In this document: piece after piece, positions 20,081 to 31,798 of the stretch | How positions within the stretch are numbered: the stretch's first letter is position 1 | How the letters are laid out: each line of letters opens with the position of its first letter | From: Candidatus Sericytochromatia bacterium | Lineage (GTDB): Bacteria > Cyanobacteriota > Sericytochromatia > S15B-MN24 > UBA4093 | Direction: 5' to 3' | DNA: 31,798 nt | NCBI GenBank assembly: GCA_044235265.1 | Contig: JBIIHZ010000001.1 | Coordinates: forward strand, 1-31,798 | Translations under genes and position numbers: made by a program | Notes under the pieces: model-generated | What the model was told of the DNA's origin: nothing | Databases searched by the model: none | Seen by the model: only the letters and a program-made list of their open reading frames with translations

Positions 20081-21676
20081 TTGCATCGCATCACCCGCGA
20101 ATGCCGGGATGCCGTCAGGAGGCTCTGGCGCCAGGAACTCGCCGACACGCACCTGGTGATCGTCTCCAACCGGGGTCCTCTCGAGCGCACCGAGGGGAGC
20201 GCCGGCTCGAGGCGAGGCCAGGGCGGACTGGTGACCGCCCTGGCTTCCCTGACGAGTCTCGTGCCTGTGACATGGGTGTCCTCACGGCTGGGGCTCGAGC
20301 CCGGGGTCGAGGAGGCCCGGGGGAGGCTGTCCGATTTTCCTGCGAGGCTCGTGAGCGTCCCGATCGAGGGCGAGCGCTTCTCGGCCTACTATGACGGGTT
20401 CTCGAACTCCTTGCTCTGGTTTCTCCAGCATGGACTCACCCACGCCCCCGTGCATCCGGACTTCGATCCCGCGACGTGGCAGGCCTGGGAGGCTTACCGG
20501 GAGGTCAATCTGGCCTTCGCCCGTGCGATCGCTGCGCTGTTGCGGCAGGACGGCCGCCAGCCCGTGGTGTGGATCCACGACTATCACCTGTACCTGCTGC
20601 CCGGACTGTTGCGGGAACTGGTTCCCGAGGCCGTCTTGCTCCACTTCACCCATGTAGCCTGGCCCTCGGTGGACGCGTGGCGCATGCTCCCGGATGCCGT
20701 GCGACGTGCCCTTCTCGGCGGTTTGCTCGCGAGCGACATCGTGGGATTTCACGTCCCGCGCTTCGCCGAACAGTTCCGGCAGGCCGCCCGGGAACTCGCA
20801 GGTGCCATCGGCCACCCGGGCTCTCCGGAACTCGTCTGGGCGGGGCGGCCCGTTCATGTCCGGGCGTATCCGATCTCGGTGGATCCCGAGGCCCTCTGCC
20901 GGGAGGCCCGTGGCCCGGCCGTCCGGCGCCTCGAATCCGAACTCGTCCAGCAGGGGCTCGGGACCGGCTACAACGTCGTCCAGGTGGCCCGGGTGGATCC
21001 GAGCAAGAATCTGCTCCGCTCCCTGAGAGCCCTGGAACTCTGGTTCGAATCCGTTCCCCCGCGGGCCGGGGAGGTAAGGTTCTGGGGAGTCATGCCGGCA
21101 TGCCGGCTCGGGGCGAGTCTCTACCGGGACCACCTGGCCCAGGTGCAGGAACTCGCGTCTCGCATCAATCGCCGTTTTCCGGGCAATCCCGTGCGCCTGT
21201 CCCATGTTCACAGCCCGGAACGCGCCCTGGCCTGCCTCCGGCACTACGATCTGCTGCTCGTGAATTCTCTGGCGGACGGCATGAATCTCGTCGCCAAGGA
21301 GGGACCGCTCGTCAACCGTCGCGACGGCGTGCTGCTGCTGTCGGAGGCGGCCGGTGCCTTCCATGAACTGGTTCCTGGCGCCTTGCCCGTTCACCCCTTC
21401 GACCTCGTCGGGATGGTGTCCCGGATGGAGCAGGCCTTCCGGATGTCCCGCCGGGAGAGGAGGGCGCGTCAGGCCTGGCTGCGCGCGCGGATCCGGGCTA
21501 ACCCCGTCCAGCGCTGGGTCGCCTCCCATCTGGCAGACGTGGCCGAGGTCATGCGTAGCCGCGCCTCGAACAAGGCGTCCTGGTTCCCGCAGGAGGGTTC
21601 TCGTGATGGATCGAACGGTGTGGCCGCAAGCACTCGAGCGGGCAGGTCTCGCGGGGTGGGTCCCGAATTCCCGTGA
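20081..21676 (+). CDS. GT20 family sugar-phosphate synthase (trehalose-6-P synthase OtsA / glucosylglycerol-P synthase-like)
   Basis: IVSNRGP, GGLVTAL, YYDGFSNSLLWFLQH, WIHDYHL, YPISVD, RVDPSKN and DGMNLVAKE. Product is not assignable from sequence alone. Confidence 0.88.
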   Translation: MHRITRECRDAVRRLWRQELADTHLVIVSNRGPLERTEGSAGSRRGQGGLVTALASLTSLVPVTWVSSRLGLEPGVEEARGRLSDFPARLVSVPIEGERFSAYYDGFSNSLLWFLQHGLTHAPVHPDFDPATWQAWEAYREVNLAFARAIAALLRQDGRQPVVWIHDYHLYLLPGLLRELVPEAVLLHFTHVAWPSVDAWRMLPDAVRRALLGGLLASDIVGFHVPRFAEQFRQAARELAGAIGHPGSPELVWAGRPVHVRAYPISVDPEALCREARGPAVRRLESELVQQGLGTGYNVVQVARVDPSKNLLRSLRALELWFESVPPRAGEVRFWGVMPACRLGASLYRDHLAQVQELASRINRRFPGNPVRLSHVHSPERALACLRHYDLLLVNSLADGMNLVAKEGPLVNRRDGVLLLSEAAGAFHELVPGALPVHPFDLVGMVSRMEQAFRMSRRERRARQAWLRARIRANPVQRWVASHLADVAEVMRSRASNKASWFPQEGSRDGSNGVAASTRAGRSRGVGPEFP

Positions 21677-22403
21677 CGCCAATCTGCGTGCGGTGCGCCA
21701 GATGCTCGAGGGGGTGTCGTTCTACACGTTCGGCATCGGTCTCGTGCACCGGGCCCTGGCGCTGGGGATGCTCGACGAGGAGGGGGTCGTGGCCCTGATG
21801 GCCGAGTCGTGCGGCCTCGAGGGGGCGGAAGCCTTCCGGGAACGGGACGGCTTCATCGCCCCGGAACGGACCGTGGCCGGGATCTGGGCCGCAGCCGCCC
21901 TGATCGAGCGCGTCCTGAGAGCCCGCCCGGGAGCCCGGATGGCTTTCGGGACCGGGCATCCCGGGGCCCTACTGACGTGCTATCAGCGGCTGGCCGCTCA
22001 TCTCGCCGCCCTGGGGGGATGTCCGGTGGCCGGGCCCGTGGGGGCGACGGTGGGAGTCGACTGGGTGCTCGACATGCTGGGAGACGTGGCGGTCACGAGT
22101 GACACCTGCGGCATCCTGCATGGCCACGGTACCCGGGCGATGGAAGCCCTCCTTTCCGCCCGGACGGGGACTGTCGATCTCGTGATCGCCGACCACGGTC
22201 ACGCCGGGGCGGCGATCAATGCCGGTCTCCCGACCATCGCGCTGATGGACACCAACGATCCCGCACTGGCCGTCGCCGCCCGTCTCGGGGCGCGCGATCT
22301 GGTCGTCATCCCTTGCTTCGACAATCGCCCGAATGCCGTCTCGGTTCTCGTGGCCGACCTGATCCACCAGGCCGTGGCGCACCGCCTCGGCGTGCTAACA
22401 TGA
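21606..22403 (+). CDS. Putative non-HAD phosphatase (resembles the Pfam 'Phosphatase' family, PF15698 as I recall) (265 aa)
   Basis: Motifs FGTGHPGALL, LHGH, DLVIADHGHAGAA, DTNDPAL and PCFDN. ATG after GGAGG, overlapping the GT20 3' end by 71 nt. Family assignment is from memory. Confidence 0.7.
   Translation: MDRTVWPQALERAGLAGWVPNSRDANLRAVRQMLEGVSFYTFGIGLVHRALALGMLDEEGVVALMAESCGLEGAEAFRERDGFIAPERTVAGIWAAAALIERVLRARPGARMAFGTGHPGALLTCYQRLAAHLAALGGCPVAGPVGATVGVDWVLDMLGDVAVTSDTCGILHGHGTRAMEALLSARTGTVDLVIADHGHAGAAINAGLPTIALMDTNDPALAVAARLGARDLVVIPCFDNRPNAVSVLVADLIHQAVAHRLGVLT
22393..22401 (+). promoter_or_regulatory. Extended -10 promoter for tRNA-Val (TGcTAACAT)
   Basis: TGnTAnnnT ending 8 nt before the tRNA 5' end. 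Confidence 0.55.
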
Positions 22404-22482: not shown

Positions 22483-22544
22483 CTTCCTTTTCCCGGATGA
22501 TCGATGGGGCTTCCATCCACCGGTGTTCATCCAGGAGGGCAGAC

Positions 22545-24341
22545 GTGCCGTCACCGACCTTCCAGACCCTGGAAGCCCGCCTCGAACACCTCAGGGCACG
22601 GGATCCGGGTCCTGAACTCGCCCGGGCCCTGGTCGAACTGGCCTGGGAAACCGCCATCGAACCGCGATCGGATGCACTCGTGCGCGAAGCCCTCGCGCTG
22701 GTGAGCCAGTTCGATTGCCTGGACGTCGAGGCCCACGCGCACGGTGTGCTGGCCTTCCGGGCCCGGATGCGAGGGGCCTGGCACGACTGTCTGGACCACG
22801 CAGAAGCCGCCCGGATCCGCTTCGAGGTGCTCGACGATCCGACGGGTCTCTCCCGGACCTACGAGATCCTGGTGAGCGTCCACGACCAGTTCGAGGACCA
22901 TGCCCGGGCCCTCGAGTATGCGCATCTCGCCCTGAAAATGGCGAGACGATCCGGGGAGCGTCGCGCCGAGGCCTGGGCCATCCATGCGATCGCCTATGTT
23001 CAGGGCGTCGTCGGCGATCCGGAAGCGGCGATCGCCGGGGTGGAGGAAGCCTGGCCCCACTTCGAGGCACTCGGGATCCTGAACGGTCTCGCGCGCTGTG
23101 CGATCACCCGAGGCTTTGCCCTGCTCGACCTGGGGCGCCTCACCGAGGCACGTGACAGTTTCCTCCGAGCCCGGCAACAATGGGCCGCCGTGGGGTCGAT
23201 GCGTGGGGTGGCCGGTGTGAGCCGCACCCTGGCCGAGTTGAGTCTCCTCGAGGTCGACGGGCCAGCCGACCTCGAGGCGGCGCTGGCCCACGCCACGGAG
23301 TGTGTCGAAACCGCACGCACGCACGGGGTGGCCGACATGCTCGTCCAGGGGTTGCTCATCCAGGCACGATGCCACCTGGCGCGGCGCGAGGCGGCGGCAG
23401 CTCGGGAGGTCTCCGGAGAAGCCCTGAGGCTCGCCCGGCAGGCCATCTCGCCATCCTCCGAACTCGAGGCCCTGGAACTCCAGGCTCGTGCCGCGGCCGA
23501 GCTCGGGGATCAGGAGCGGGCCTACCACCATTTCCTCGAGCGTCTGGACCGTGACCGGGCCTGGCAAGCCGACCTGAAAGTCATCCGGCGACGGGACCTG
23601 GAGATGGGGGTGAAAGCGGCGGAGGCCGTGGCGACGGACCGGATCTTGCATACCGTTCTGCCTGCCCCGGTCGTGCAAGAGCTCAAGCTGCACGGGGCGG
23701 TTCGTCCCCGTCGGGTCGAGGCGGCCACCGTGCTGTTCACGGATCTCGTCGGCTTCACGGCCGTGGCCAGTCGGATGCCGCCCGAGGTCCTCGTCGAGGA
23801 ACTGGAACGCCTGTTCGGTGCGTTTGACGCGGTGGTTCGCCAGACCGGCCTCGAGCGGCTGAAGACCATCGGCGATGCCTACATGGCCGTCGCGGGCGTG
23901 CCCGTATTCGATCCGGCCCACGTTTTCCGGGCCGTGGTGGCGGCCCTCGGATTCCGCGAGGCGGTCGTCCGGCTCGCCGCGGACGCGGCCCATCGGGAGG
24001 GGGGAGCCGTCTGGCAGCTCCGGATAGGTCTGCACTCGGGCCCGCTCGTGGCGGGCATGATTGGTCGCGAGCGGACGGCCTTCGATGTCTGGGGCGATAC
24101 CGTCAACATCGCCTCGCGCATGGAGTCGAACGGCCAGCCGGGGCGGGTCAACGTGTCCGAGACCGTGTTCCGGGTCATCGAACCGTACTTTCTCTGCGAG
24201 GATCGGGGAAAATTGCCGGTCAAGAACCGGGGAGACCTGGGCATGGCTTTCGTCGATCGGCTGCGTCCGGAGTGGTCGGATGACGATGCAGGAGTCGTGC
24301 CGAACGAGGCATTCTGGAAGGCTGTGCGCGGCGAGGCCTGA
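22545..24341 (+). CDS. Soluble class III adenylate cyclase with N-terminal TPR-like helical region (598 aa)
   Basis: TVLFTDLVGFT, LKTIGDAYMAV, LRIGLHSG and FDVWGDTVNIASRMES. Lys/Asp specificity residues indicate ATP. GTG after GGAGGG RBS. Confidence 0.92.
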   Translation: MPSPTFQTLEARLEHLRARDPGPELARALVELAWETAIEPRSDALVREALALVSQFDCLDVEAHAHGVLAFRARMRGAWHDCLDHAEAARIRFEVLDDPTGLSRTYEILVSVHDQFEDHARALEYAHLALKMARRSGERRAEAWAIHAIAYVQGVVGDPEAAIAGVEEAWPHFEALGILNGLARCAITRGFALLDLGRLTEARDSFLRARQQWAAVGSMRGVAGVSRTLAELSLLEVDGPADLEAALAHATECVETARTHGVADMLVQGLLIQARCHLARREAAAAREVSGEALRLARQAISPSSELEALELQARAAAELGDQERAYHHFLERLDRDRAWQADLKVIRRRDLEMGVKAAEAVATDRILHTVLPAPVVQELKLHGAVRPRRVEAATVLFTDLVGFTAVASRMPPEVLVEELERLFGAFDAVVRQTGLERLKTIGDAYMAVAGVPVFDPAHVFRAVVAALGFREAVVRLAADAAHREGGAVWQLRIGLHSGPLVAGMIGRERTAFDVWGDTVNIASRMESNGQPGRVNVSETVFRVIEPYFLCEDRGKLPVKNRGDLGMAFVDRLRPEWSDDDAGVVPNEAFWKAVRGEA

Positions 24342-26756: not shown

Positions 26757-26869
26757 GGCGGTCCTCCTTCCGGAAGCTCGATCATACGACGCCCCGGGGC
26801 GCATTCGTTAGAGGTTCGGGCACCGCGGTATATGAAGAAGCGGTCACCGGGCGGTTCTCAGGTGGTGCC

Positions 26870-28564
26870 ATGACACACATCCCGGCTCCGGTCGGTCCCG
26901 TACGCTTCGATCCCCTGTCGCATGGCATGGCCCTCGGGCGTGACCGGGTGGAAGAGATCCTGGCGCCGCTCGACACCTGGTGGGCCAGGATCGACACGCT
27001 CCATTTCGACAGATACCGTCAGGATGTTCTGGAAGGTCGTATCCATTCGGTCTTCGGGGTCCAGATCGAAGGTGAGCTGCCTGCCGCGCATCCGATGGGG
27101 GCGGTCTCCGGTTCTCCGTTACCGGGCAACGGGGGCGCGGCGCCAGCGAGCTCGGTCCCTCGGCCTACCACGATGCTGCGTCGGTACGAGCTCCCGAGGC
27201 TGGTGCCGGTCAAGGTCGTCCGATCGACGGGGGAACTCGATCCGGACTGGATCCTGCTCGGTCCCTCTTCTCAGGGGATGGCTCACGTCTTCCGGCTCAC
27301 GCCTGCCGGTCCCGTTCACAAGCGCATTTCCGTCGAGGAGCTCCTGGCCTGGAACGCCTCGCTCCTTGCTCCGGGGACGATCGTGCGCGTGCCCCGGAGC
27401 AGCGGTGAGGCCGAAGACGGCTGGGTCGTCCTGGCCAGTCAGGATGATCGTCTGCTCGTCGAGAAGGGCGGGGTCGGACGCAAGCAGATCCTGGCAGCCC
27501 AGCTGGCGCCTCTGGTGGCGCCCCTCTGGGGGCACCTCCCGCTACAGGCGCCTGAATCACCCCGCCCACAGCCCCTTTCGGTGGCAGTCGGGACGGACCT
27601 GCGCATCTACCGCAGCGAGGGCAATCTCGAGCCCGGATGGACGGTGGTGCGTCAGGAGGGAAATCAACTGCATCTGCAGCGCGAGGGCGCCCACGGCATG
27701 CTCCAGAAGCGCTTGCGCCTCGAGATGGCGCTGATCTGGAATCCAGACCTCCTGCCGACCGGCACGACCTTGCGCCTCGAGATCGACGGCACGGTCGTCG
27801 ATGGCTGGTTGCTCGTGGCGGCCAGCTGGGATGGGCTCGAGGTGGTGCATGTCCTGCATGGCACGCGCATCGAGCCACTCGAGGTGGCGATCCGCCTGAA
27901 CCGCGATCGTCTCCTCGGGGAGGGGGAGCCCCCCTTTCGCTTTCCGTCTCCGGAAGCTCGTGCCCAGCGTCTGGCCTATGCTCGCGACCACCTTCTCGAG
28001 GGATACGTCTGGGATGGCTTCGTGGACGGGGGCCGCCATGCGGCGCTCGATACCGACTACTGGCCGGTGGCGACGCAGCGCGAGGTGCTCGTGGTGGACC
28101 GCGCCTGTGACCTGTCCCTGCGCGCGCACATCCAGCGGGTCCAGACCACCCTGGAGGCCCTGGAACCCGTCTCGCGACTCCAGGAGCTGGTGAAGTACGT
28201 GCACGAGCAGATGGGGGGGCCCATCTCGCGGGTCGAGGAGCGCGTGGCCCTCGCGGCGGCCCGCATGCGGCAGCAGCCCCTGCTCATCGGGGACGTCCCC
28301 CGGGTGCTCGGGGGCGGGATCGTCCGTCACCGGACCTTGCTCTTCCAGGTCCTGGCGGAAGAGCTCGGTCTCACGTCAGCCATGGTTCGTGGCGATGCAG
28401 GGACCTTCTGTCCATCCCCGCATGCCTGGAACCTGGTCGATCTGCCCGACATGCGGGTCGCCGTGGATCTGTCGCGTCCGGCTGCCCAGGCCTTCGCGGC
28501 CCTCCAGCATCCCTGGACCCAGCGCTATTACCATCCCCATCCCCCTCGCGGAGATCTCGCATGA
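26870..28564 (+). CDS. Four SH3/Tudor-like repeats + C-terminal EDR1-type (transglutaminase/papain-like) domain with Cys->Val (564 aa)
   Basis: EDR1-type motifs DGFVDGGR, REVLVVDR, GIVRHRTLLFQVLAE, MVRG, HAWNLV and VDL. Repeats VxVxRSxGxxExGW. ATG at 26870 after AGGTGG. Confidence 0.8.
   Translation: MTHIPAPVGPVRFDPLSHGMALGRDRVEEILAPLDTWWARIDTLHFDRYRQDVLEGRIHSVFGVQIEGELPAAHPMGAVSGSPLPGNGGAAPASSVPRPTTMLRRYELPRLVPVKVVRSTGELDPDWILLGPSSQGMAHVFRLTPAGPVHKRISVEELLAWNASLLAPGTIVRVPRSSGEAEDGWVVLASQDDRLLVEKGGVGRKQILAAQLAPLVAPLWGHLPLQAPESPRPQPLSVAVGTDLRIYRSEGNLEPGWTVVRQEGNQLHLQREGAHGMLQKRLRLEMALIWNPDLLPTGTTLRLEIDGTVVDGWLLVAASWDGLEVVHVLHGTRIEPLEVAIRLNRDRLLGEGEPPFRFPSPEARAQRLAYARDHLLEGYVWDGFVDGGRHAALDTDYWPVATQREVLVVDRACDLSLRAHIQRVQTTLEALEPVSRLQELVKYVHEQMGGPISRVEERVALAAARMRQQPLLIGDVPRVLGGGIVRHRTLLFQVLAEELGLTSAMVRGDAGTFCPSPHAWNLVDLPDMRVAVDLSRPAAQAFAALQHPWTQRYYHPHPPRGDLA
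27209..27905 (+). repeat. Four degenerate ~50-57-aa protein repeats arranged as two pairs
   Basis: Units start at aa 114 (VKVVRSTGELDPDW), 171 (IVRVPRSSGEAEDGW), 244 (LRIYRSEGNLEPGW) and 301 (LRLEIDGTVVDGW). Both pairs have a 57-aa period and a shared WN..LL..GT junction. Confidence 0.75.
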
Positions 28565-29520
28565 AGTCCAGGACGACCATCCAGCGGCTGGCCGTGGGCG
28601 ATCGCATCGACGGCCTCGAGATCCTCGGGATCGCCGGAGAAGGGGGTATCGCGCGGGCCTACCGGGTTCAGGTGCCCGAGGGACCGTCCATCCTCAAGCT
28701 GGCCAAGCGGACCTTGCCCGATGCCTACGGAGAGGCGACGGTCGCCGAGCGATTCGCCCAGGCCGTTGCCTTCCATACCGGTGGCATGGGGCCCGGGCAA
28801 CTCTCGGCCAACGATCTGCTGGAACGGGAGGCCATGCTCGTCAGGGGGCTCCAGGATCCGATCTTTCCGGTCATGCGGGCAGCCGGGCGCATCGGCGATC
28901 GCGCCTACGTCCTCTACGAGGACCTGGGTGACGATCACCTGCGCGCGCGACTCGACCGCCGCGAAGGAGTCCCGGCTGCCTGGATGCTCCGGCTCGCGTC
29001 AGAACTGTCGGGGCGGCACGTCGACGGTCGTCTCCCCTTTCACGGTGACCTGAAGCCCGAGCACATCTTCTTCGATGCCTCCGGAGGGGTGCGGCTGATC
29101 GATCCGGCCTGTGCCGCGGCCGAAGGGCGTCCGCCGGGTAGCCGGAGTCTGCTCACGACTCCGGCATACAACCCCTACATGCAGGCAGACGATCGGACGG
29201 CTTTCGCGCTGGTCTGGCTGGAGGTCCTGGTCGGAGAAACCCTGCTGGGAGAGGTCCCCCAGCGCGAACGGGCGAGCTTCGCCCCCTCGTTCCGGAAATG
29301 GCTCGAGCTGATGGAGTCAGGAGCTCGTGGCCGTCACGTGCGCCTGCTGACCCGGTTGCCGGCCGTGAGCGTACTGCAGGCGCGGGTACCCCATGCCATC
29401 CTGGTCTGCCTGTTACGTGGCCTGGGGCTCCAGATGGACGATGACGGAGCCCTCGATCTGGTGGCAGGGTACCCGGGATGGCCGGATTTTCTCGGTGCCC
29501 TCGAGAGGGCCGCGGCATGA
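28561..29520 (+). CDS. Atypical Hanks-type Ser/Thr protein kinase (319 aa)
   Basis: G-loop GEGGIARAY, beta3 ILK, alphaC LEREA, catalytic loop HGDLKPEH, LIDPA in place of DFG, TPAY. ATGA overlap with the upstream gene. Confidence 0.82.
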   Translation: MKSRTTIQRLAVGDRIDGLEILGIAGEGGIARAYRVQVPEGPSILKLAKRTLPDAYGEATVAERFAQAVAFHTGGMGPGQLSANDLLEREAMLVRGLQDPIFPVMRAAGRIGDRAYVLYEDLGDDHLRARLDRREGVPAAWMLRLASELSGRHVDGRLPFHGDLKPEHIFFDASGGVRLIDPACAAAEGRPPGSRSLLTTPAYNPYMQADDRTAFALVWLEVLVGETLLGEVPQRERASFAPSFRKWLELMESGARGRHVRLLTRLPAVSVLQARVPHAILVCLLRGLGLQMDDDGALDLVAGYPGWPDFLGALERAAA

Positions 29521-30278
29521 ACCTCAAGACCGTCAAAGTGCGGGTCGAGCAGGAACTCCAGGCCGGTCGCTTCGATGAAGCGGCGCGGATCGTCCGGCAG
29601 GGCATCTACACCGCTCCCACCTCCGTCGACCTGCATCGCCTGCTGGCCCATATCCTCGCCCGGGCGGGACATCACGACCTCTCGTTCCAGGAGCTGGCTG
29701 ACGTGCTCCGGCTCGATCCGGATCAATCCGGGGTCCGCTTCCTCATGGCGTTGCTCTTGCTCAGGCACGGGGAGACCCTCGAAGCCCTGTACGAGTTGCA
29801 GGCCGTCGTGCAGCAGGAACCGCAGCGCTCGGCGGCCCGGCTCGTGCTCGCGGCCGTTCTCGAGAGGGCGGGGGATCTGGCGGGGGCCAGGGCGGCTTAC
29901 CTGGAACTCGTCCGTCTCGAGCCGGGCATGATCCCGGCCCTCGTCAATCTGGCCGTGCTCACCGAGCGCATGGGAGACCCCGTCGAGGCGGAGCGACTGT
30001 ACCGGGAGGCTCTCGCGATCCATCCCGATGACGTGGTCAGTGCCCTGAACCTGGCCCGGTTGCTCGGGCAGCGAAATCTCCTGGAGGAGGCCCGGAGGAT
30101 CCTTGGCCGGATCCTGGATCGGATTCCGGGGCAGCCCGAAGCGCTCGCCTTGCTCGGCTGGATCTACCTGCTGGGTGGACACCCCGATCCTGCGCGCGCC
30201 TATCTGGAGGAGGCCCGTCGCGCGGGTATCGATACGCCGCGGTGGCACGCATGTCGTGCTGCGCTGACCCCCGGTTGA
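29517..30278 (+). CDS. Tetratricopeptide-repeat protein (253 aa)
   Basis: About 6 TPR-like units (e.g. ALVNLAVLTERMGDPVEAERLYREALAIHPDD). ATGA overlap with the kinase stop. No signal peptide. Confidence 0.9.
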   Translation: MNLKTVKVRVEQELQAGRFDEAARIVRQGIYTAPTSVDLHRLLAHILARAGHHDLSFQELADVLRLDPDQSGVRFLMALLLLRHGETLEALYELQAVVQQEPQRSAARLVLAAVLERAGDLAGARAAYLELVRLEPGMIPALVNLAVLTERMGDPVEAERLYREALAIHPDDVVSALNLARLLGQRNLLEEARRILGRILDRIPGQPEALALLGWIYLLGGHPDPARAYLEEARRAGIDTPRWHACRAALTPG

Positions 30279-30286
30279 GGCGTCGA

Positions 30287-31798
30287 TCAGGCCAGAGATT
30301 TCCGGGTGCCCGACCGGGTCAGTCCCCCTTCACCTTCCGTGGAGTTCGCTGTCGCGGCTTCCCCGGCCGCAGCGACCCAGTGTGCAGGCACGGTTGCCCG
30401 GACGAAACGCATGGCAAAGTCCAACGCGTTGACGTAGGTGATGTTGTTGCCCTCGATCGGGTCCCAGAGGCCTACCCCTTTCGCCGCGACGTTACCCAGG
30501 TCGAGCAAGACCATGGAGTGCAGCGATCCGTCCGGCATGCGCATCGAGATCTTGGGGACGCCATCGACCGATTCCCGCATGCCCTTCAGCACGGCATCCG
30601 CATCGGGATTCGAGGACAGGCTCAGCAGGAAGGCGATGACCTGATCCGGGCCGAGGGTGGCCCAGTCGCCGCCGAGAAGCTTCTCGTGCAGCATCTCGCT
30701 GGAACGGGGACCGATCGCCGTCTGTCCGTCCCAGCTCGTCGTACCCGCCGCCAGGGCGCCCAGGCTGGTCTGCAAGGCCAGATCGACCAGAGAGCGTCCG
30801 CCCGCCTCCGAGGGGTTGAATGAGGCAAGTGGCATCGTGGAGCCATCCGTCAGGGTCGCGCTGCCCCGTGTCACCAGCCCCACGGCGATGCGGGCGAAAT
30901 CCGAGGGGCGCGTGAAGGCGAGCTCGCCCTCGAGCGTTGCCAGCGTGCAATCGAGCGTTCCAAGTCCTTGACGCGTCTCCTCCGGGGCGACGAGGCGATC
31001 GAGGATCTGGCGGGCGATCTCCGGCTTTCCGACCGCCTCGAAGGCCGGGTGCAGAGGACTGCTGATCAGGCTGGCCAGGTGTTCGATGGCCAGAGCCCCC
31101 GAGGCATCGGGCCGGTAGGCATTCCCGGTGATGAGGTTGCCCTGGAACTCCTTGGAGTTTTTCAGGGCCATCGCCAGCTTGTCGGCAACGGCATCAGCCC
31201 CGGCGTCATCCAGGCCTTCCGAGGCCAGGCCGTAAACGTCGTAGACGGCCTTCTTCTGGGCCGCGCTGAGCGGAGAGCCGTCGGGTAGCCGGGCTGCATG
31301 GACGGCTTCCTGAAGACGGTCGAATCCGGACCGGGGGAGGCCCTCGAGCGGAGGAAGCATCGAGCTCATGTCCACGTTCACACCGGGACCGAGTTCGTCC
31401 AGAGGTGACGCCGGCGCCACGGGAGCGCCCTGGCCTGGCATCTCGACGGTCCTGGAAGTGGCTCCGCCGAAAGAGGGCATCTCGACGGTCCTGGAAGTGG
31501 CTCCGCCGAAGGAGGGCATCTCGACGGTCCTGGAGGTGGGGCCACCGAAGGAGGGCATCTCGACGGTCCTGGCCGAGGTCGGAATCCCGATCCCGGGAGG
31601 CAAGGAGACGGTGGAGGCGGGTTGCACGAGGCTCGGCCCAGGTGCAGGCAAACCGCCGAGGCCTATGGAAGTCGGGTCACCGCGCAGGTTTCCATCCACG
31701 AGCGGGTTCTGAACGGCAGCTTCACGTCCGTCTGCAGCCTGACCGGTCATGCCCGGCATGGAAACGGTGCTGGCAGCGCGAGGCATCTCGACGTTGGA
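30287..31798 (-). CDS. Pro/Gly-rich repeat protein with putative C-terminal papain-fold cysteine peptidase domain, probably 5'-partial
   Basis: Frame is open to the window edge beyond ATG 31786. Low-complexity N-terminus, helical middle, then Q273...C280 (RQGLGTLDCT), H423 (LHSMVLL) and D442 (WDP), numbered from ATG 31786. Confidence 0.7.
   Translation of the reverse strand, partial: SNVEMPRAASTVSMPGMTGQAADGREAAVQNPLVDGNLRGDPTSIGLGGLPAPGPSLVQPASTVSLPPGIGIPTSARTVEMPSFGGPTSRTVEMPSFGGATSRTVEMPSFGGATSRTVEMPGQGAPVAPASPLDELGPGVNVDMSSMLPPLEGLPRSGFDRLQEAVHAARLPDGSPLSAAQKKAVYDVYGLASEGLDDAGADAVADKLAMALKNSKEFQGNLITGNAYRPDASGALAIEHLASLISSPLHPAFEAVGKPEIARQILDRLVAPEETRQGLGTLDCTLATLEGELAFTRPSDFARIAVGLVTRGSATLTDGSTMPLASFNPSEAGGRSLVDLALQTSLGALAAGTTSWDGQTAIGPRSSEMLHEKLLGGDWATLGPDQVIAFLLSLSSNPDADAVLKGMRESVDGVPKISMRMPDGSLHSMVLLDLGNVAAKGVGLWDPIEGNNITYVNALDFAMRFVRATVPAHWVAAAGEAATANSTEGEGGLTRSGTRKSLA
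31437..31572 (-). repeat. 39-nt coding tandem repeat, about 3.5 copies, (S/A)RTVEMPSFGG(A/P)T
   Basis: Units at 31437-31475, 31476-31514 and 31515-31553, plus a partial unit at 31554-31572. In frame with the 30287-31798 CDS. Confidence 0.95.

Follow-up and report, generated by a model that had tools for sequence, protein, structure and literature searches.

Does the combination of an EDR1 domain with a protein kinase, reported to be confined to plants and protozoans (PMC5874906), have a counterpart in bacteria, and what could such a counterpart be doing there? The question is raised by three adjacent genes (genes 1, 2 and 3 below) in a stretch of 31,798 nucleotides, analysed in full and referred to here as the window, that makes up positions 1 to 31,798 of contig JBIIHZ010000001.1 (C344) in a metagenome-assembled genome (MAG) of a Candidatus Sericytochromatia bacterium (GCA_044235265.1; 2.3 Mb, 82% complete). 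Gene 1 encodes a protein with β-rich repeats and a C-terminal EDR1 domain, gene 2 a protein kinase, and gene 3 a tetratricopeptide repeat (TPR) protein. The EDR1-plus-kinase gene pair looks like an undescribed signalling module that recurs in unrelated bacteria. The literature that we searched contains no description of a bacterial EDR1-kinase pair, in agreement with the preliminary description of the locus, made from the nucleotide sequence alone, which had not recognised it as a described system; most subscription journals lie outside the coverage of that search, so that absence is unproven.

The preliminary description had presented the locus as three co-directional genes joined by two ATGA stop/start overlaps, and both overlaps were confirmed at the positions listed in Table 1; purine-rich Shine-Dalgarno-like sites (GGAGA and GAGAGGG) precede the two junctions by 7-8 nt, and the start methionine of gene 1 is the same in the aligned homologues. 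The assignment of an EDR1 domain to the C-terminus of gene 1 was likewise borne out by a hidden Markov model (HMM) check, in which residues 402-535 match the Pfam family PF14381 (EDR1_CTR1_ARMC3_pept) with an E-value of 3.6e-14 and 53.5 bits against a cut-off of 27; a scan of the whole MAG with PF14381 gave gene 1 as its single match. The AlphaFold2 (AF2) model of gene 1, with a mean predicted local distance difference test score (pLDDT) of 59 and values of 75-90 across residues 110-350, contains four β-rich repeats followed by a helix-then-strands domain. Searched with Foldseek, the repeats match tandem Agenet/Tudor/KOW structures (E about 1e-4) as well as Tudor/Agenet/SLA1-homology clusters; for the C-terminal part, the hits are AlphaFold clusters with the name EDR1/CTR1/ARMC3-like (E 1e-7). 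A sequence search of solved structures with the EDR1 domain returned no significant similarity. A repeat HMM detects the repeat in almost every kinase-linked homologue, in two to four copies that immediately precede the EDR1 domain.

As to gene 2, its identification as a kinase stands on profile and fold, although the Pfam cut-off is not reached: the protein falls below every Pfam kinase threshold (Pkinase, PF00069: E 0.15, 11.9 bits against 31.7), while some of its homologues do pass that of Pkinase. A profile of the 36-member family (alignment A3), compared with the Protein Data Bank (PDB), finds PknB at E 2.5e-21. The AF2 model (pLDDT 91.5, predicted template modelling score 0.91) retrieves Stk1, PknB and B-Raf from the PDB with a Foldseek probability of 1.0, B-Raf being tied with the bacterial kinases, and PknB, PrkC, StkP and PknH from Swiss-Prot. 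The Gly-rich loop (G28/G29), K46, E90, D163, K165 and D181 are invariant across all 36 members; the catalytic loop reads H161-G-D163-L-K165-P, the DFG motif is replaced by 'IDP', which contains D181-P182, and the activation segment carries T199-T200-P within a conserved T-T-P-x-Y-x-P. By profile and fold, and by its motifs apart from DFG and the catalytic-loop Asn, gene 2 is a bacterial Hanks-type kinase; it is not specifically similar to the Raf or tyrosine kinase-like (TKL) kinases, since its nearest relatives, both by sequence and by structure, are bacterial Hanks kinases. Because the catalytic residues are invariant across the 36 members, gene 2 is predicted to be an enzyme and not a mere binder.

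Sericytochromatia are the non-photosynthetic sister class of cyanobacteria. Gene 1 is encoded in all nine other genomes of the family, which represent four genera, and in 9/9 of them genes 2 and 3 follow directly 3' of it in the same order, down to identities of 31-37% (tblastn); the three-gene arrangement is therefore not a product of chance. In 17 genomes from the other three families of the order gene 1 was not found. The exact 4-nt overlaps are not universal among the relatives, where gaps of 9-30 nt also occur. In two genera the module adjoins gltX, the kinases of Sericytochromatia form a subclade with support of 100/99, and within the family the module is vertically inherited.

An exhaustive search with gene 2 yielded 596 representative clusters (E <1e-3), most of which are stand-alone proteins of about 300 aa, and the genomic places of ten homologue clusters among them were looked up. 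Seven of these (P0032, P0033, P0034, P0035, P0036, P0037 and P0041; 27-35% identity) are each preceded immediately upstream by a gene on the same strand whose product ends in PF14381, the two genes being joined by a 4-nt overlap or spaced by 14-60 nt, and the same arrangement is found in a Myxococcota MAG (L119). The EDR1 proteins encoded upstream in the kinase-linked loci range from 395 to 3521 aa. The cluster P0198 (L169) is uninformative on the linkage, as the end of its contig removes the upstream DNA. In the maximum-likelihood tree all 17 EDR1-linked kinases (17/17), together with this cut-off P0198, fall on one side of a branch with support of 90/79. The largest of the upstream proteins is encoded at L165:1-5918 of a 247-kb contig; it ends in an EDR1 domain with Cys, His and Asp, its gene overlaps by 4 nt with a gene-2-type kinase gene, and its last 1667 residues, the part that was read, contain no further Pfam domain.

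Other relatives of gene 2 were considered and set aside. P0048 (L170) belongs to a tandem of kinase-like genes without EDR1, a different setting for a gene-2-like kinase; at L170:233-2364 a 388-aa kinase-like gene precedes that of P0048 (322 aa), with 4-nt overlaps, and a 357-aa gene follows. The gene-2-like kinases of Planctomycetota (L036-L069) are similar to gene 2 at residues about 9-233 only (122-152 bits), have no EDR1 neighbour and form a separate clade, so that they were not counted with the module. No EDR1-kinase fusion was present among the ten multi-domain homologues of gene 2 that were checked; P0047, P0038, P0159 and P0088 are fused tandem kinases, and P0100 is a leucine-rich repeat kinase. 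A word-indexed protein search with the full-length alignment A6, which is uninformative on bacterial fusions, returned the known family alone, with no fused or eukaryotic members.

The third gene is indeed, as proposed at the outset, a TPR protein (Pfam TPR_19: E 1.5e-28, 99.3 bits against a cut-off of 25; TPR_14: 76 bits; TPR_2: 71.8 bits). It was found by tblastn in L003-L011, L014, L015 and L035 and is absent downstream of the EDR1-kinase pair in L119, L163, L165, L166, L167 and L034. The TPR gene is thus specific to the Sericytochromatia family and lies outside the conserved two-gene core. The expectation that homologues of gene 1 would lie next to kinase and TPR genes elsewhere held for the whole triad within the family and, beyond it, for the kinase in P0032-P0037, P0041 and L119, but not for the TPR gene.

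PF14381 is grouped with transglutaminase-like papain-fold peptidases (PMC10318531), and the consensus of the EDR1 alignment, G-G-G-V-C-R-H-R ... H-A-W-N ... V-D, contains the expected Cys-His-Asp triad. Gene 1 has valine (V485) at the site of the cysteine and keeps the histidine (H518) and the aspartate (D533); in the AF2 model V485 lies at the N-terminus of the helix 482-498, and the two strands that come next carry the His and the Asp. The nucleophilic cysteine is missing in all four genera of the family, being replaced by Val, Ala, Ser, or Asn/Ser, and the genus with Asn/Ser has lost the RHR motif too. In the kinase-linked EDR1 domains outside the family the triad is mostly kept. Within the genus each of the three genes is under purifying selection, with ratios of nonsynonymous to synonymous substitution rates (dN/dS) of 0.10-0.13, and the Cys-less EDR1 domain, at 0.059, is the most constrained part of gene 1; it follows that the domain is functional without the canonical cysteine. 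Judging from its residues, the EDR1 domain of gene 1, a PF14381 member by sequence, is probably a non-catalytic pseudoenzyme, and in the lineage of the family the loss of the nucleophile coincides with the gain of the TPR partner.

With moderate confidence we favour the interpretation that the two-gene core, that is, a protein with SH3-like repeats and an EDR1 domain and a dedicated Hanks-type Ser/Thr kinase, is one obligate cytoplasmic unit. This interpretation rests on the tight, in many cases overlapping gene pairs found in different phyla, the single grouping of the kinases, their invariant catalytic residues and the purifying selection. The products of genes 1 and 2 would then correspond to the single EDR1-plus-kinase polypeptide of plant CTR1/EDR1 divided in two, with translation of gene 2 coupled to that of the upstream EDR1 gene. 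The EDR1 protein would serve as a non-catalytic regulatory or targeting subunit that receives input or docks through its SH3-like repeats, and the kinase would be the output enzyme. In the Sericytochromatia family the Cys-less domain would act by binding and not by catalysis, and the TPR protein would be an added third subunit, probably a scaffolding one. Plants and Toxoplasma have an EDR1 domain followed by a kinase within one protein (PMC5874906, PMC9370073, PMC10318531), and since the eukaryotic fusions combine both domain families in an identical order, the Rosetta-stone argument speaks for a functional link between the bacterial genes as well. No 19-residue window in any of the three proteins reaches the Kyte-Doolittle threshold for a transmembrane segment, and none of their N-termini looks like a signal peptide, as had been noted from the outset; the EDR1, kinase and TPR proteins are thus predicted to be cytoplasmic. 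This, together with the vertical inheritance and the adjacency to gltX, fits a resident regulatory function. We infer from these features the formation of a complex, the direction of regulation and a role in signalling and not in conflict.

Several observations weigh against this interpretation. A survey of EDR1 loci (alignment A5) in Verrucomicrobiota, Planctomycetota, Thermoleophilia, Obscuribacterales and other groups showed a kinase of the gene 2 type nearby at only L119 among about 34 bacterial EDR1 loci outside the family, and the low-GC picocyanobacteria-like genomes contain EDR1 proteins with no such kinase within 1.5 kb. The two surveys are therefore asymmetric: the kinase clade appears to be tied to EDR1, but the converse is not the case, and the domain does not in general require a kinase. 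In one of the kinase-linked homologues (L033) EDR1 forms the C-terminal domain of an Rhs protein, as in the layout of toxins. The similarity of the kinase is to bacterial Hanks kinases and not to the Raf-like kinase of CTR1, so the parallel with plants may be convergent. Residue 168 of gene 2 (29062-29064) is histidine in the source genus only (including P0016 and P0017), in place of the catalytic-loop asparagine (HGDLKPxN) that is present in the other genera and in at least 90% of the wider kinase family, and the kinase activity may be altered by this replacement. Finally, binding and phosphorylation among the three proteins are putative, and the complex prediction for the EDR1 domain (residues 355-564) with the gene 2 kinase, which scored 0.00 against a mark of 0.32, speaks neither for nor against binding.

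The survey of EDR1 loci provided some further observations. At L111 a canonical Pkinase/β-helix gene lies 700 nt after the EDR1 gene, and we judged it unrelated or coincidental. Two Thermoleophilia/Gaiellales MAGs contain giant open reading frames (ORFs) with an EDR1 domain and no linked kinase (L112:3-4460, >1480 aa; L114:675-5663, 1663 aa); both encode one or two SH3-like repeats, and that of L112 also a phospholipase D-like domain after EDR1. The Obscuribacterales MAG SW_5 has a gene-2-like kinase (261 bits; L062) and an EDR1 protein (L140) on separate contigs, which may represent an unlinked version of the pair.

Among the other explanations, the one that survives best, though we consider it unlikely, is that the pair is a conflict module, in which the EDR1 domain would be an effector, a toxic peptidase or transglutaminase, with the downstream kinase as its immunity (neutralising) factor or as a co-effector, after the manner of polymorphic toxin or toxin-antitoxin pairs, and in which the copy of the Sericytochromatia family would have been domesticated or disarmed. 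The hypervariable N-termini of the EDR1 proteins, with a constant C-terminal domain and a constant next gene, are laid out as in polymorphic toxins; the pair occurs in scattered phyla, and the Cys-His-Asp triad is intact in most of the homologues from outside the family. The clearest case is L033:1-2778 (JAUUZP010000573.1), a canonical Rhs-repeat protein in which a C-terminal variable region of about 370 aa comes after the RYYDP...DPxxL end of the core; this region contains EDR1, with Ser at the nucleophile position and RHG instead of RHR, and a gene-2-type kinase gene lies directly 3', in the position of an immunity gene. However, gene 1 itself has no N-terminal secretion or trafficking domain, Rhs repeats occur only in that homologue, and, out of about 12 independent EDR1 partners, only 1 has a recognised delivery domain. 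An immunity protein is as a rule small and non-catalytic, whereas the partner in question is a kinase of about 310 aa with invariant catalytic residues (319 aa and dN/dS of 0.10-0.13 in the case of gene 2). The presence of the module in every genome of the family, its vertical inheritance next to gltX, and the strongest constraint being placed upon a 'toxin' without a nucleophile also argue against a conflict role, as does a search of PADLOC-DB 2.0, which gave no match for gene 1 and chance-level matches only for gene 3.

Somewhat less probable still, in our opinion, is a broader scenario, in which the repeat-EDR1 protein and the kinase make up an ancient, horizontally mobile unit of two enzymes, a Cys-peptidase or transglutaminase and a kinase, with a common target, which bacteria would deploy as a resident regulator in some cases and as an Rhs-delivered effector in others; such a unit would be the prokaryotic counterpart, and possibly the source, of the EDR1-kinase architecture of plant CTR1/EDR1. 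If this were true, it would be the first tractable system for finding the function of the EDR1 domain.

It is also conceivable, although improbable, that the EDR1 domain of the family is still an enzyme, a peptidase or transglutaminase that uses another nucleophile, for instance C514, and is switched on or off by the kinase through phosphorylation. In favour of this, His518 and Asp533 do not vary, constraint on the domain is high, and a cysteine of the C514 type, four residues before H518 ('CPS[PA]HAWN'), is confined to the two genera whose canonical site has Val or Ala (g1 and g3), being absent where Ser or Cys occupies it. Still, the genus g2 has lost the cysteine, the RHR motif and part of HAWN and has gained no such residue, a relocated nucleophile has no known precedent in the family, and the geometry around it cannot be judged from the AF2 model, which is poor at residues 510-517 (pLDDT <50).

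The preliminary description had suggested a phosphosignalling or conflict/defence system. As for anti-phage defence, in which the kinase would be a sensor or effector and the TPR protein or the repeats a sensor of phage proteins, this role is highly improbable: defence systems do commonly use TPRs and repeats as sensors, and gene 2 does match the PD-T4-6 defence kinase models of PADLOC-DB 2.0 (E 1.6e-5), but this weak match is at the level of generic kinase similarity, no defence or mobile-element genes were seen among the genes flanking the triad, which are housekeeping ones (e.g., gltX), and the module is syntenic, vertically inherited and present in every genome of the family, unlike typical defence islands.

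The G+C content of the window is 68%, and its DNA was found again in lake and freshwater metagenomes. The triad, whose features are collected in Table 1, is flanked by an adenylate cyclase gene, gltX, a reverse-strand DUF983 gene, and a convergent gene of 499 aa without a Pfam match. The latter (30287-31786, reverse strand) is separated from the TPR gene by an 8-nt gap, has no PADLOC match either, is kept only inside the genus (L014, L015) and does not adjoin the triad in another genus (L035). The upstream cyclase (22497-24341, forward strand) is an adenylate/guanylate cyclase with an N-terminal TPR region, and farther upstream (20081-22403, forward strand) a GT20 glycosyltransferase gene overlaps a gene of the PF15698 'Phosphatase' family. 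A scan for promoters and terminators gave no signal above chance. Pieces of genes 1 and 3 are present in metatranscriptome contigs, none of which crosses a gene junction; expression of the triad is possible on this weak evidence, and carry-over of DNA is possible as well. The deepest of the metatranscriptome contigs, X12 and X24, cover the 499-aa gene.

Table 1. Positions of the genes, domains and translation signals of the triad in the window.
Feature	Position	Strand	Description	Basis
Shine-Dalgarno-like AGGTGG	26860..26865	+	4 nt 5' of the gene 1 ATG	Direct sequence reading
Gene 1	26870..28564	+	564 aa; family-specific N-terminal region, four SH3/Tudor-like repeats, C-terminal EDR1/CTR1/ARMC3 peptidase-like domain	ORF, start, Pfam, AF2, Foldseek
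Four β-rich repeats of ~57 residues	27182..27919	+	Residues about 105-350; motif V-x-V-x-R-S-S-G-x-x-E-x-G-W; SH3/Tudor/Agenet/KOW-like fold	
EDR1 domain (transglutaminase-like, papain-fold)	27932..28561	+	Residues 355-564; DGFxDGGR and REVxVVDR motifs conserved	Pfam, alignments A1 and A4, motif tables
EDR1 active-site positions	V485 28322-28324, H518 28421-28423, D533 28466-28468	+	V485 is the nucleophile site	
ATGA stop/start overlap, gene 1/gene 2	28561..28564	+	GGAGA at 28550-28554	
Gene 2	28561..29520	+	319 aa; stand-alone Hanks-type protein kinase with C-terminal helical extension	Alignments A2 and A3, PknB profile, AF2, Foldseek
ATGA stop/start overlap, gene 2/gene 3	29517..29520	+	GAGAGGG at 29503-29509	
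Gene 3	29517..30278	+	253 aa; TPR throughout; part of the module in the Sericytochromatia family alone	TPR_19, tblastn

The EDR1 domain is a part of central stress and hormone kinases of plants (CTR1, EDR1, ARK) and of an essential kinase of Toxoplasma. Its role has been called unknown and is thought to be regulatory or related to interactions (PMC5874906, PMC9370073). The bacterial pair, two small, co-translated, soluble proteins with natural variants that have or lack the catalytic cysteine, offers a simple test system, in which one can ask whether EDR1 binds, regulates or is modified by the kinase, whether it has an enzymatic activity, and how the pseudoenzyme originated. It also adds an unrecognised class of partners to bacterial Ser/Thr kinase signalling.

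Compared with the known bacterial Hanks kinases PknB, PrkC and StkP, gene 2 shares with them the fold, the Gly-rich loop, Lys46, Glu90, the HxDLKP motif, the metal-binding Asp181 and the threonines of the activation segment. Unlike them, it falls below the Pkinase cut-off, has I-D-P in place of DFG and, in this genus, His in place of Asn, lacks a membrane anchor or sensor domain of its own, possesses a conserved C-terminal helical extension and is obligately linked to an EDR1 gene. PknG carries its own TPR domain. Gene 1, in turn, resembles the peptidases PeiW/PeiP (MEROPS C71) and LapG (C93) in the topology of the fold, with the nucleophile site at the N-terminus of a helix and His and Asp on the following strands, and differs from them in having Val instead of the nucleophilic cysteine (Ala, Ser or Asn in the sister genera). 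LapG, PeiW and PeiP work outside the cytoplasm, whereas gene 1 is cytoplasmic by its sequence. With the Rhs toxin/immunity pairs the module shares variable N-termini combined with a constant C-terminal domain and next gene across homologues, of which L033 is a true Rhs protein; unlike those pairs, gene 1 has no Rhs or delivery domain, its partner is a kinase with an active site, and the module is stable and vertically inherited.

The closest parallel is provided by CTR1 and EDR1, the Raf-like MAP kinase kinase kinases (MAPKKKs) of plant group B3, the moss ARK and the Toxoplasma TgTKL1, in which PF14381 is located N-terminal to a Ser/Thr kinase; in the bacterial module the same succession appears as gene order. 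The preliminary description had viewed the locus as a split CTR1/EDR1-like pairing, and this view was upheld as regards the order, EDR1 being followed by the kinase in distant loci as well, but not as regards the kinase, which is of the Hanks type. CTR1 and EDR1 are each one polypeptide, whereas the bacterial module consists of two ORFs with an ATGA overlap; their kinase is of the Raf/TKL type, whereas that of gene 2 is nearest to PknB, PrkC and StkP; their N-terminal module is a PAS domain or the CTR1 N-terminus, whereas gene 1 has SH3-like repeats; and the TPR partner is an addition of the bacterial locus. Because it is split and its kinase is not Raf-like, the operon falls outside the CTR1/EDR1 MAPKKK family, and common descent with CTR1 is not implied, although it mirrors the architecture of that family in two separate genes.

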